Notes: generated by a model from the sequence alone, not told the origin. Counted from the first letter of the stretch, positions 60,034 to 64,000 are shown. The stretch: 64,000 nt of DNA from Methanothermococcus sp. SCGC AD-155-E23 (GCA_019561615.1 JAHEQA010000036.1:27335-91334), one strand, 5' to 3'. Numbers and translations: made by a program.

Positions 60034-61206
60034 ATGAAGAAGATAGAATATGAGAAACTTCTCATGATCCCAGGACCTACCATGGTATCAAGTGAGGTAT
60101 TGAATACAATGGCCTATCCTGTTATAGGTCATAGAACTGAGGAGTTCAGGATACTGTTGGAGGATACTATAGAGAAGATGAAAAAGGTATTTATTACCCA
60201 GGGGGATGTTTACATCATCACAGGATCTGGAACTGCAGCTATGGATATGGCTATTGCCAACACTGTAGAGAAGGGGGATAAGGTACTTACTATATGTAAC
60301 GGTAACTTTGGAGAGAGGTTCTCCAAGATTGTGGAGGTGTACAAGGGAGATGTTGTTAAATTGGAGTATCCATGGGGAAGGGGTGCAAGACCTGAGGATG
60401 TAAAGAGAATCTTGGAGGAGAATCCAGATATCAAGGCTGTCACCGTAGTTCACAACGAGACATCCACAGGTGTAAGGAATCCAATTAAGGAGATTGGAGA
60501 GATAGTTAAGGACTACAACGCCCTCTATATAGTTGATACCATCTCCTCCCTAGGTGGTGACTACGTAGATGTGGATAGATTCCATATAGACATATGTGTT
60601 ACAGGCTCTCAGAAGTGTCTAGGGGCACCTCCAGGGGTCTCAGCCATATCCATAAGTGAGAAGGCCTGGGATGTTATAAACTCCAGGGAGAGTAAGTCCT
60701 TCTACCTGGATATAAAGGCCTATAGAGATAGGTTTGAGAGTAAAAGGGAGTCACCCTATACACCTGCAGTACCCCTGATCTATGCATTAAATAAGGCACT
60801 GGATAGGGTACTTGAGGAGGGTTTGGAAAATAGGGTTAAGAGACATGAGAGGATGGCAAGGGCAACAGTTGCAGGGTTGGAGGCCATGGGTATAGAGTTA
60901 TTTGCAGAGGAGTGGGCAAGATCTATAACTGTAACCTCTGCCAAGTATCCAGAGGGTATAGAGGATAAGAAGTTTAGAGGGATCCTATCTAACAAGTACA
61001 AGGTGGTCATTGCAGGAGGACAGGGACAGGTCAGCGGTAAGATATTCAGGATAGGACATATGGGAGAGGTAAGGGAGATCCATATACTGGGAACCTTGGC
61101 CGCCATAGAGATGGCATTCAAGGAGTTAGGCTATGAAGCCAGTGGAGGGGTAGATGCTGCCAAGGATATACTGGGTACGGGCTGTACTATAGATAGCAAC
61201 ATTTAG
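60034..61206 (+). CDS. Class V PLP aminotransferase
   Basis: LMIPGPT, GSGTAAM, VHNETSTG, VDTISS, GSQKCL, FRIGHMG. Confidence 0.93.
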   Translation: MKKIEYEKLLMIPGPTMVSSEVLNTMAYPVIGHRTEEFRILLEDTIEKMKKVFITQGDVYIITGSGTAAMDMAIANTVEKGDKVLTICNGNFGERFSKIVEVYKGDVVKLEYPWGRGARPEDVKRILEENPDIKAVTVVHNETSTGVRNPIKEIGEIVKDYNALYIVDTISSLGGDYVDVDRFHIDICVTGSQKCLGAPPGVSAISISEKAWDVINSRESKSFYLDIKAYRDRFESKRESPYTPAVPLIYALNKALDRVLEEGLENRVKRHERMARATVAGLEAMGIELFAEEWARSITVTSAKYPEGIEDKKFRGILSNKYKVVIAGGQGQVSGKIFRIGHMGEVREIHILGTLAAIEMAFKELGYEASGGVDAAKDILGTGCTIDSNI

Positions 61207-61294
61207 ATATTATTCTTCTTGAGTATGGGGAGACGTTGAGAGGTTAAGTAGGTTGTTGGACATGGGGAGTTTGGTTACCTTGTCTTAAATTTTT

Positions 61295-61935
61295 GACGAA
61301 ATTCGTACCCCCTAAATTTTTTCACTATAATACAAAATCAACCCCCTCTGTTTTCTTATAATAAAAAGTTGAACCCCCGGTGCGAAATCCGCACCCCCTC
61401 AAAGATTTTCCCCGGGTTTTTTCTCACCCACCTTCCCAAAATCCCAATTCCATATATATACCTGCGTCCCAGGGTATATATACCCCGGGACGCATTCCGC
61501 ACCCCCTCTCCCATTTTCTTATAGTGAATACCTGAACCCCGGTGCGGAATGCGTCACAAAATCCCTCTTAAGGTGCGGATTTCGTCCACCTACGAAGGTC
61601 AACCTCGAGATTTTCCCGGGACTCTTCCTTGACAACTGCCGCATTTCGCACCCCCCTCCAAGACCCCACAATTTTTTCTTATAATATAAACCTCATTTCT
61701 TATAGTGAAACCTCCTTTGAGGGCTAGTAACCCCTGGGTAATACCCCTAACTGTGCCGAAGTTCGGATCAGAGATTCTAATACCCCCTCTTAGGGTTTCT
61801 GATACCCCGGTGCGAAATTCGTCCCAATTCGACATCTCCCTATACTGGTTTTTCCAGAAAACCACGACGAATTTCGCACCTAAAACAGTACAACCCCCTG
61901 ACTAAAACCCAAAATAAGGACGAGATCTGTACCCC
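61295..61935. repeat. Non-coding cluster of 15-bp pseudo-palindromic motifs in both orientations, with TTATAGTGAA motifs and a 32-bp palindrome
   Basis: GACGNAWTYCGCACC-like copies at 61295, 61379, 61489, 61541, 61572, 61638, 61809, 61866 and 61919. Perfect 15-bp inverted pairs at 61489/61541 and 61809/61866. Confidence 0.85.
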
Positions 61936-61973
61936 ATAAAAAATAGTGACTTAACCTTCAGTGGGATATACGC

Positions 61974-62130
61974 CATACTTCCCCTATGCCCGCTATATGG
62001 GTACTTAAGCCCTAATGGTTACAGGTATTCCCCTGAAGATGTGGGGAGTTCCTCTTCCCTTGAAAGCCCTCAGATAAGAGGGAAGGTTATCCACTACCGA
62101 TGTTTCAAATGTGATAGATAATCAGAACGG
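61974..62130 (+). mobile_element. Internally deleted tnpB 3' remnant (IS200/IS605 or IS607 type)
   Basis: Broken-frame peptides HTS / LCPLYGYLSPNGYR / LKMWGVPLPLESPQ resemble, from recall, the Thermococcales/Methanococcales TnpB C-terminus TSSLCPICG.KLSPNG.R...LKMWGV..PPESP. Ends CAGAACGG. Confidence 0.65.
62033..62130 (+). ncRNA. HgcC/omega-RNA-like structured RNA
   Basis: Three stems: 62043-48/62054-59, 62067-71/62078-82 and 62085-91/62117-23. GATGTGGGGAG...GAAAGCCC...GGGAAGG...CAGAACGG matches my recollection of the HgcC family. Confidence 0.55.
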
Positions 62131-62133
62131 TAA

Positions 62134-62505
62134 TCACTCCTCCTCAAACTCTACAGTTATATTTTTTATGTTGAACTCCTTACCCCCATCTATTTTTAGT
62201 GATAGGTTGCCACATTTTGGACAACTTATAATAAGATCATCTACAGAGTCTAGCTCCCCCCTGTAACCACAGTTGTTACATGTGATATAGGGTTTTATAA
62301 TCTCCACCTCTATCTCTGCCCCCTCACATATAGTGGATTTGGAGATCACCTCGAAGGCGAACTTCAACTGCTCTACATTTATAAATGTTAACTCCCCAAT
62401 TTCCAGCTTTATCTTACTTACTCTTTTCACATTTTTGAGATTCTGGTTTTTTACAGTATCTAATATGGTGTTTAACATGAAGGTTGCATAGGATAACTCG
62501 TGCAT
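62134..62505 (-). CDS. hypA: Hydrogenase nickel metallochaperone HypA
   Basis: MHELS, IGELT..N.EQL.FAF, CNNC..CPKC, GG.E. Confidence 0.95.
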   Translation of the reverse strand: MHELSYATFMLNTILDTVKNQNLKNVKRVSKIKLEIGELTFINVEQLKFAFEVISKSTICEGAEIEVEIIKPYITCNNCGYRGELDSVDDLIISCPKCGNLSLKIDGGKEFNIKNITVEFEEE

Positions 62506-62574
62506 ACTCTACACCTTCAATTAAAATAATAAGGTTTAAAATGATTGTTTTTTATATTACTGCTAGGTGATAGG

Positions 62575-63453
62575 ATGAGTATTATAATAGGTTATTACGG
62601 CCATAACGGTGCTGTAATTGGTGGGGACAGGAGGAATATCATCTTCAGGGGTGATCCTAAGAAGAGGGAGGAATTAGAGAGAAAGTTATACTCTGGAGAG
62701 ATCAAGGATGAGGAGGAGTTAAAGAGGGTGGCAGAGGAGTTGGGGGTTAAGGTATACATAGAGGATGAGAGAGTCAAGGTGAAGAAGATAAACAACACTT
62801 TAGTTGGGGAGGTTAGGTCCATAGGTGCAGATTCCCGTCGGAGGAGGATGTACTTAACTAAGGGGATGTGTGCCATTGTGGATATACTAAATGACGATAT
62901 TGTAAATAAGTCTGTAAAAAAAGGTAGTGGTATTATCATCTTTGGAAATAAGTATCTGAAGGAGATAGCTAGTAGGGAACTTAAGAAGTACATGTACGAC
63001 TTCAACAGGATGAGTATTGAGGAGGTTAAGAAGGTTATAGAGGATGTACTGAGGAAATGTTGTGGGGGTCCAACATCCTCCAAGGATTTTGACATACTCT
63101 ATACAGATAAGAGGGAGAGGGATCTGGAGAAGGTTATTAAAGAGGATTTAGAGGAGTTAAGGAGGTACAGGCAGGAGTTAAGACAGAAGATGGAGGATTT
63201 CCAAAAGGTTATGGCCATAGTGAATAAGATAGAGACCAACGGGGAGGTTGGTGTTATCAAGGATGGAAAACTTGTACTAAATGAGGACCATTTAGCCATA
63301 GATAAGATATGTCCAAATCCAAGACAATTTAAAGAGATAGAGGTTGAAGGGGATTTTGAGGAGGGGGATATAGTGGTAATAGAGAACGGTGCCTTGAAGG
63401 TAAAGGGTAAGGATGTGATACTTAAGACCAACTACATCATATGTAAGAAGTGA
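62575..63453 (+). CDS. DUF2121 Ntn-fold protein (Connectase, MJ0548-like) with C-terminal extension
   Basis: MSIIIGYYG.NGAVIGGDRR.I.F.G, LE..LYSG.I, RRRMY.T.G. ATG at 62575 after GGTGA leaves an N-terminal Ser. Confidence 0.85.
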   Translation: MSIIIGYYGHNGAVIGGDRRNIIFRGDPKKREELERKLYSGEIKDEEELKRVAEELGVKVYIEDERVKVKKINNTLVGEVRSIGADSRRRRMYLTKGMCAIVDILNDDIVNKSVKKGSGIIIFGNKYLKEIASRELKKYMYDFNRMSIEEVKKVIEDVLRKCCGGPTSSKDFDILYTDKRERDLEKVIKEDLEELRRYRQELRQKMEDFQKVMAIVNKIETNGEVGVIKDGKLVLNEDHLAIDKICPNPRQFKEIEVEGDFEEGDIVVIENGALKVKGKDVILKTNYIICKK

Positions 63454-63455
63454 CC

Positions 63456-64000
63456 TCAGTATTCCGTGAGTTTCTTCTGTCTCCTGATATCCTCCACCTC
63501 ACTTATTAGTTTATCTATGCTGCTTAGGAAGCCGTCAAGGAGCTTCTTCTCCGTACTCTCTGTAGGCAGGGTTTCTGAGATGGCCTGAGCAACCTGGTAG
63601 AATACCCCCCTGTTTACGTATCTACTGTTCTCCAGGAGTTCCAGGAGCTCTTCTTTTCTATTATTTTTCCAGAGTAATAGGGCTTTGTGTATCTCATCTA
63701 CGAGGTCCCTTACCCTTATCTCCTCTAACTTTCTATCTTGTGGCCCTAGAACCCTTATGTACTCCTTCTCCCTCTTTATGAATCCCTTATTCCATTCCTT
63801 CTCTAGAGAAAGTCCCACTGACTGTGCCAGTTTCCGGGCATCGTCGTAGTGCACCTTGGCCTCTCCATAGCTCCATCTCCAGAGGATGTAGAATCTGGTG
63901 AGGGGTGTTAGCTCCTGGGAGATACCGTTATGCAGTATTCTTCTGACGGCGTAATCAGTTACTATATTTCGGAGGATCTCCAGCATCTGGGATATCTCTA
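63456..64000 (-). CDS. C-terminal part of a DUF1156-type adenine DNA methyltransferase (continues past window end)
   Basis: Frame is open to 64000. TRFYILWRW.YG...V.YDDARKLAQ.VG, L.D..H..L.LW, F..VAQA....LP...EK.LL.G. Family call from recall of this C-terminal pattern. Confidence 0.7.
   Translation of the reverse strand, partial: EISQMLEILRNIVTDYAVRRILHNGISQELTPLTRFYILWRWSYGEAKVHYDDARKLAQSVGLSLEKEWNKGFIKREKEYIRVLGPQDRKLEEIRVRDLVDEIHKALLLWKNNRKEELLELLENSRYVNRGVFYQVAQAISETLPTESTEKKLLDGFLSSIDKLISEVEDIRRQKKLTEY

Follow-up and report, generated by a model that had tools for sequence, protein, structure and literature searches.

The closest described systems to the element considered here are the operators of archaeal Lrp/AsnC (FFRP) regulators and the bacterial interspersed mosaic elements (BIMEs), which contain repetitive extragenic palindromes (REPs). 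The element is a cluster of nine to ten dyads, 15-17 bp each, at positions 61293-61933 of a 64,000-nucleotide stretch (the window) from Methanothermococcus sp. SCGC AD-155-E23 (GCA_019561615.1, JAHEQA010000036.1:27335-91334), and it lies inside the largest gap of the window without open reading frames (ORFs). As described in the parts of Yokoyama et al. cited here (PMC2715240), the archaeal Lrp/AsnC regulators bind 13-bp dyads of the form abcde[AAT/ATT]e'd'c'b'a'. For example, the site of TvFL3 is TACGA[AAT/ATT]TCGTA, and that of Ptr1 from M. jannaschii is TACGC[AAT/ATT]GCGTA. The M. jannaschii Ptr2 site is GGACGA[AAA/TTT]TCGTCC, and the contact residues of the FFRP proteins are at positions 24, 34-37 and 39. 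The archaeal Lrp targets are typically clustered, imperfect and helically aligned sites, according to the sections cited here of a review (PMC2995911). The BIMEs were also reported, in the portion of PMC2817692 referred to here, to serve as protein-binding sites.

The arrays share with the operators of Ptr2, Ptr1, TvFL3, Ss-LrpB and FL11 a 13-bp layout in which [AAT/ATT] has 5 bp on either side and positions c and d are C-G, and the clustering of imperfect sites; an alignment of the array sites by the helical repeat, as in these operators, is suggestive only. The location of these operators just 5' of the B recognition element and TATA box in activated promoters also has its counterpart in the present dyads. 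However, the known targets comprise two to four sites, two or three turns apart, at one promoter; whereas the arrays have up to about 18 sites per locus at about five turns, occur at many loci, and often lie between gene 3' ends. Like the BIMEs, the arrays are dispersed clusters of intergenic imperfect palindromes in both orientations, with conserved linkers and a mosaic composition, and both are often found between converging genes. The differences from the BIMEs are the archaeal host, a palindrome of the Lrp/FFRP code instead of the REP form, the regular spacing of 53-56 bp, and the 434-bp higher-order tandem units in one relative (G011). Moreover, a cognate REP-associated tyrosine transposase (Y1 type, PF01797) had no match in the window's own draft genome (G000; 1.04 Mb, 51 contigs, 86% complete), nor in the array-bearing relatives G005, G009 and G011.

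These comparisons suggest that the cluster is a member of a BIME-like family of dispersed mosaic repeats with phased Ptr2-type operators, a reading to which a probability of about 0.5 is assigned. It is highly probable, independent of any binding protein, that the cluster is a multi-copy repeat of the insertion type. The repeat family is new and lineage-restricted, and no description of such repeats was found in the literature on Methanothermococcus and Methanococcales miniature inverted-repeat transposable elements (MITEs) and on Lrp-linked repeats.

The insertion is evident from the alleles of close relatives. The aminotransferase stop directly abuts the hypA stop in one of them (L023), where the protein is 93% identical and aligns to query residues 1-381 only. 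In a vent-metagenome contig (run X4), 61177 is followed by 11 other letters and then by 62138, so that 960 bp are missing. The whole gap is therefore a 960-bp insertion (61178-62137), because both sequences join the aminotransferase directly to hypA. Two other close relatives (L025 and L026) carry different DNA at this site. The synteny check proposed by an earlier note on this stretch thus told against a fixed element, as the array is missing from L023 and the X4 contig; and a replication origin, a centromere-like site or any other fixed chromosomal site is argued against by an insertion with an empty allele.

The copies within the draft genome agree with this. The 15-mer motif has 56 matches in G000 versus 3 for the reversed control, and 54 of the 56 are located in nine loci on the contigs C4, C9, C13, C17, C23, C29, C36 (the window), C45 and C47. 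A unique cluster, one of the two outcomes that had been envisaged for a genome-wide scan, can thus be set aside in favour of a dispersed one. A core unit of 365 bp (61351-61715) is present in full on C4, C17, C29, C45 and C47 at 96-98% identity by BLAST, which together with the window gives six full copies; partial copies are found at the contig ends of C9, C23 and C13, and C29 and C45 hold composite tandems including a variant of about 77% identity. Among the vent-metagenome contigs, several different flanks begin exactly at 61351 and at 61713/61715. The summed contig depth in run X3 over 61371-61736, which is not a copy number, was 6-20 times the flank depth.

The nine 15-bp sites listed in the earlier note were all recovered where it had placed them. 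The pattern GGTGCGRAWTYCGTC with at most two mismatches has 9 matches in the 64-kb window, two of which are two readings of one palindromic site, and all are inside 61295-61880; 0.16 matches were expected from shuffled sequences, and at least 9 were reached in 0 of 100 shuffles. The listed site at 61919, with a GAT centre, is more degenerate (at least 3 mismatches to the pattern), and one extra degenerate site (centre 61761) was added by a weight matrix. Other statements of that note were also borne out. Both 61489/61541 and 61809/61866 are inverted pairs, exact over 15 nt, around inserts of 37 and 42 nt; the gap 61207-62133 (927 bp) is the largest without an ORF of at least 100 aa, the runner-up being 485 bp; the CpG observed/expected ratio is 1.00 at 61295-61935 versus 0.24 in the remainder of the window; and the C-runs described beside the sites correspond to dyad positions ±7 and ±8 being G/C in 63-68% of the unique sites.

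The symmetrised matrix of 52 unique sites from four genomes gives GG-T[A/G]CGA-[AAT/ATT]-TCG[T/C]A-CC, in which the C-G at positions c and d was part of the site-selection pattern. The centre is AAT or ATT in all 52 sites, although the selection permitted any A/T triplet; a few sites with a GAT centre are outside this set. The commonest half-sites are TGCGA, TACGA, TGCGG and GACGA. Within the whole of G000 there are 62 CGNWWWNCG cores, 50 of them in arrays. The adjacent centre-to-centre distances (n = 100, four genomes) are concentrated at 53-56 bp (57 distances) and 108 bp (12); others are 31 bp (6), 64 bp (6), 86-87 bp (7) and 96 bp (3), and those of 20, 35, 105, 117, 144, 151 and 160-161 bp were counted once or twice. 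Among the 57 spacers that make up these 53-56-bp steps, 21 sequence classes can be distinguished; therefore the spacing length is kept, and the spacer sequence is not. In G011, eight monomers of about 54 bp form a 434-bp higher-order unit that is repeated in tandem at one locus (C40:1-1250).

The distribution in relatives is narrow. A count of the motif CGRAATYCRYACC across 40 genomes of the order shows enrichment in four of them, G000 (18), G011 (26), G009 (7) and G005 (5), against 0-2 matches in each of the other 36. The closed genome G005 holds a single cluster in a 960-bp gap between hisC and the shikimate kinase gene (aroK), a gap of about 60 bp in G000; and G000 is empty at three G011 array sites (C32:~43670, C8:26363 and C6:15407). 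Of 20 array loci taken from G009 and G011, 12 have a flank (82-93% nucleotide identity) beside which G000 carries an array at the orthologous position. Among these are sites that follow nrdD and the genes for a pyridine-nucleotide-disulphide oxidoreductase, NAD kinase, an aminotransferase, an amidohydrolase, a RimK-like ligase and a helicase. At the nrdD site, arrays are present in all three species (G000, G009 and G011) with differing module content. The core identity within G000 is 96-98%; whereas the best G000-G009 array match is 79%. From the alignments, this pattern fits long residence at shared sites together with turnover and homogenisation within a genome, which could proceed by gene conversion or repeated replacement. 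Most of the G009 and G011 array loci sit at contig ends, and therefore the repeats break the short-read assemblies of these genomes; the analysis accounts for the assembly breaks of vent Methanothermococcus-like genomes at array loci.

The half-sites of the arrays fit the published FFRP site code. Exactly one protein with the Lrp ligand-binding domain (PF01037) is found in each of G000, G005, G009, G011 and G010. The G000 protein is encoded at C46:29576-29998, was assigned by PF01037 and its similarity to Ptr2, and has 75% identity to a Methanocaldococcus protein named Ptr2 by NCBI. It retains Tyr..Ser-Glu-Ser-Ser-x-Arg, which are the Ptr2 contact residues when mapped by a constant offset of 4. 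The region C46:27675-30300 consists of an fprA-like gene, the gene of the Ptr2 orthologue and a divergent ferredoxin gene. Outside the arrays, a dyad GACGAAATACG[C/G]A, nearly identical to the array dyads, lies a few bp 5' of a TATA-like box in front of fprA (F420H2-oxidase-like) in G000, G010 and G006. In G000 the dyad and the TATA-like box are about 70 bp upstream of fprA, and this promoter is about 2 kb from ptr2; a second dyad 30 bp further upstream is found in two of the three genomes (G010 and G006). This layout is that described for Ptr2-activated promoters in the part of the review cited (PMC2995911), and the fprA upstream dyad is likely a native Ptr2 operator. The sequence KRCGAAWTTCGYM was not enriched over the control in five complete relatives; it pointed to the fprA dyad pair.

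Several array modules repeat the same layout, namely a dyad, about 10 nt and a T-rich TATA-like box, which suggests that the family arose by amplification of a promoter module. A stronger form, with the 54-bp units as promoters throughout, was considered and dropped since the TATA-like box is missing from most spacers.

Several observations weigh against Ptr2 as the array-binding protein. At position a of the half-site, 69% of the sites have T and 30% have G; whereas the published rule, as given in the cited part of PMC2715240, ties Ser37 of Ptr2 to G at this position. The array centre is AAT/ATT, and that of the Ptr2 site is AAA/TTT. The known Lrp sites are two or three turns apart in the review sections cited (PMC2995911), and those of the arrays five. 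The best general period is 10.75 bp, with R 0.62 on 13 distance classes and p of about 0.06; moreover, the copies are related by descent, so that the counts of sites and distances overstate their independence. A dyad of this type was looked for in the spacer between ptr2 and the ferredoxin gene of G000, and none was found. G010 and other relatives with the same Ptr2 have no arrays; the arrays are therefore not needed for Ptr2 function. Among the 12 cores outside arrays, three are also AAT/ATT-centred, and only one of these is promoter-proximal. With these points included, binding of the arrays by the Ptr2 orthologue is a prediction whose chance is put slightly below even.

The proposed mechanism is as follows. 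The repeats are built of modules of about 54 bp, each with one 17-bp dyad, and the dyads would be operator-type sites for the only Lrp/AsnC (FFRP) regulator of the genome, the Ptr2 orthologue. Ptr2 dimers might then occupy one face of the DNA at intervals of about five helical turns and assemble a higher-order nucleoprotein array, which could act as a regulator sink, as a roadblock between converging genes, or as a portable upstream activating module. The modules probably come from an amplified Ptr2-type unit of operator plus TATA box, and might spread by gene conversion or recombination between copies, or possibly by an unrecognised enzyme. A more far-reaching proposal is that an amplified promoter module gave rise to phased Lrp (Ptr2) operator arrays throughout the genome, which homogenise themselves and on which filaments of Ptr2 oligomers would buffer the free regulator, insulate converging genes or wire new genes into a Ptr2 redox regulon. 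This would be a mobile regulon of vent methanogens and a previously undescribed feature of archaeal genomes; the proposal is tentative and rather less than probable.

If the dyads bind the Ptr2 orthologue, repetitive DNA would here have spread the sites of a transcription factor, something rarely seen in archaea. In a genome of 1.2 Mb, the few promoter sites would then face competition from about 50 strong ones, which would bear on the rewiring and buffering of regulons in small archaeal genomes and on Lrp proteins as architectural factors. The earlier suggestion of a multi-site protein-binding locus thus survives in its general form, as the sites are dyad-symmetric, phased and of the FFRP code; its specific proposals (an origin, a centromere, or plasmid or virus iterons) are not supported.

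An alternative is that the family is a selfish, non-autonomous mobile element of the MITE, REP/BIME or IS200/IS605 palindrome-associated type, in which the palindromes are hairpins or sites of a transposase or recombinase and the likeness to Lrp sites is coincidental. The arrays are short, non-coding, multi-copy, intergenic and sharply bounded, they have filled and empty sites as MITEs do, their presence or absence differs between relatives, and they break the G009 and G011 assemblies. Both array strands also fold far better than shuffles (z -8.4 and -6.7), and this equal folding of the two strands follows from the DNA-level symmetry of inverted repeats. The physical link to a tnpB remnant at several loci is a further trait shared with the IS200/IS605 elements. 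On the basis of its similarity to other copies, the segment 61979-62130 (+) is a decayed 3' remnant of an IS200/IS605-type tnpB, covering the zinc-ribbon region, and forms the right terminus of the 960-bp insertion. It represents a second repeat family, with four more copies in G000 at 88-94% identity by BLAST (C4:6100-6301, C27:30375-30524, C29:28888-29008 and C46:59415-59476). The C4 copy overlaps PF07282 (TnpB zinc ribbon; E 4.7e-10) and has an internal stop; the window copy has a CPxxG...CxxC pattern in frame. Pfam gave no match for the window's own remnant or for the aminotransferase tail. At the window and four G011 loci, the array adjoins such a remnant that forms one terminus of the insert. 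The order of array end, short hairpin junction and tnpB remnant recurs at G011 C40 and C113, and the mirror image is found at C88 and C101, where the remnant terminus is at the gene-proximal edge of the insert; the arrays and the remnant were therefore moved or kept together more than once.

The hallmarks of such elements are nevertheless missing. The six full core copies have no terminal inverted repeats, as their ends are direct repeats of TTTCTTATA[A/G]T[A/G]AAA, and no target-site duplication was seen when they were read by eye. No cognate transposase was found in the array-bearing genomes; neither an intact tnpB nor a Y1 tnpA was found in G000, G009 and G011, and the G005 array is present in a genome with no tnpB match at all. 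G010, the only relative with intact tnpA and tnpB, has 0 matches to the dyad motif, so the dyads are not part of the IS200/IS605 ends. The 25 array loci are flanked by housekeeping genes, and the 35 ORFs scanned include no transposase or integrase. The 12 of 20 loci that are orthologous across species would be unusual for an active transposon, and a spacing of 53-56 bp is not known to serve transposition. A known MITE or a decayed protein gene, which the earlier note had held up against its own reading, is thus borne out in part: the locus is a dispersed repeat, but not a known one, and only the right-hand 150 bp of the gap are a decayed gene, the tnpB remnant. Overall, an element of this kind with coincidental Lrp likeness is considered unlikely.

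The locus might also be an array of small structured RNAs or promoter units, with transcripts starting at the dyads from the TATA-like boxes and the inverted pairs folding into long RNA hairpins. The boxes TTCTTATA[A/G]T at 61353 and 61516 are 17-25 nt 5' of dyads, and similar boxes occur in the G005 units; however, they are absent from most of the spacers in G011 and G000. The 61809/61866 stem is 92% paired over 7 homologues with two pairs changed on both sides, and 20 of 500 shuffles did equally well; in G005 the two sites run in the same direction instead of being inverted, and 7 of the 15 positions of this stem do not pair. Of the six core copies, three keep the 61489/61541 stem intact, one of them through a compensated change, and in the other three it is broken. 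Moreover, complementarity is built into any pair of near-palindromic sites that share one consensus. The Rfam search of 60900-62600 with E up to 10 gave chance-level matches only, none near the gathering score, among them one to CRISPR-DR49 inside the tnpB remnant. This explanation is therefore regarded as improbable.

The sites might instead have belonged to a plasmid or virus since lost, as its iterons or centromere, or represent a degenerate CRISPR array or leader; they are phased and iteron-like, and a mobile-element remnant lies in the same inserted gap. However, no array match was found in the PLSDB plasmids and INPHARED phages by blastn, or in IMG/VR with one two-dyad pattern, and the flanks of the 25 loci scanned contain no replication, partition or cas gene. 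The plasmid or virus iterons proposed earlier accordingly found no counterpart, and the statement of the earlier note that the locus is not CRISPR is upheld: CRISPR repeats are longer than these sites of 13-17 bp, the spacers do not vary between copies, and a k-mer scan of G000 found no array. This class of explanations is very improbable. A pattern scan of metagenome contigs gave 8 loci, all of which are unrelated tandem repeats with a GC content of 48-76% in other contexts.

A chromosomal replication origin, that is, a cluster of origin recognition boxes with unwinding elements, is the least credible of the proposals and is contradicted by copy number, empty sites, non-synteny and the lack of an initiator-like neighbour. 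The locus does resemble an archaeal origin in its repeated dyads with adjacent G/C runs, its AT-rich stretches and its long intergenic region, the largest non-coding gap of the window; the G005 cluster is unique in its genome with AT-rich DNA around it, and the Methanococcales origins are known from prediction only, as far as the cited parts of PMC5333045 and PMC4009838 go. However, the family has nine loci with near-identical cores in a 1.04-Mb genome, the window site is empty in L023 and the X4 contig, and the G005 locus has no G000 counterpart. The predicted Methanococcales origins adjoin an MJ0774-type initiator gene (PMC4009838, in the part cited); whereas no Orc1/Cdc6-like match lies beside the window or the G005 locus, the nearest weak AAA+ match in G005 being about 42 kb away. 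TIGR02928 (Orc1/Cdc6) gave weak P-loop/AAA+ matches only, none of them beside the loci, and the divergent Methanococcales initiator was not located by this model. A tempting false candidate is thereby removed in a clade whose origins are only predicted.

The composition of the block can be described in more detail, its features being unstranded unless a strand is given. The first segment (61178-61210, +) is repeat-derived and contains the stop and the nine codons before it of the aminotransferase ORF, which ends at 61206; the empty allele of L023 and the X4 contig ends the gene differently, with the 11 other letters. The last nine residues and stop of this class-V aminotransferase (61178-61206) are thus read from inserted repeat DNA. 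Similar segments of about 30 bp occur at C13:419-450, beside the C29 and C46 copies of the tnpB remnant, and in the G011 C40 locus. A reading of this first segment as the 3' end of tnpB was dropped. The left module (61211-61350) is shared with C13 at 95% and holds dyad 1 and a TATA-like T-rich box; by BLAST, 61211-61394 has 95.1% identity to C13:346-162, and a related module follows nrdD in G009 and G011.

Dyad 1 (61293-61309) has a GACGA-AAT-TCGTA core. The other five numbered dyads belong to the 365-bp core, which is bounded by the direct copies of the terminal repeat. Dyad 2 (61379-61395) is the full palindrome GGTGCG-AAATC-CGCACC. Dyad 3 (61487-61503; GACGC-ATT-CCGCA) and dyad 4 (61541-61557), 54 bp after it, are the left and right arms of the inverted pair I4. 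Dyad 5 (61572-61588; TGCGG-ATT-TCGTC) follows 31 bp after dyad 4, and dyad 6 (61636-61652; GCCGC-ATT-TCGCA) a further 64 bp on. The TATA-like boxes of the core are at 61353, 61516, 61676 and 61697. The core also contains an AT-rich perfect-core palindrome, TATATATACC / GGTATATATA (61463-61494), which gave spurious miRNA-like hairpin matches only. The following block (61716-61978) is single-copy in G000, and homologous to the repeated units of G011 and the single cluster of G005; for example, 61728-61908 has 86% identity to positions 395-575 of the G011 C40 locus. Its dyads are at 61753-61769 (degenerate), 61809-61825, 61864-61880 and 61917-61933 (degenerate), the last three spaced 55 and 53 bp. 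A hairpin-capable junction AGTGA..TCACT (61939-61965) ends the array; these 27 nt also end the G011 arrays on C113 and C40, at 96%.

The neighbours of the locus are purD, the aminotransferase, hypA and genes with no assigned function, and ARAGORN found no tRNA near the gap. Just past these neighbours, an ORF at 63456-63998 (-) that runs off the window end encodes a helical protein. The G+C content of G000 is 43%, and one stretch of G005, which is of the same genus, looks much more AT-rich as judged by eye. An AT-rich segment with 'ctaaaaaggataaaacagaa' is common to the aminotransferase-hypA gap of L025 (700-1100) and the hisC-shikimate kinase gap of G005 (L032, 9690-9760); this shared sequence hints at another dispersed AT-rich repeat in that lineage.

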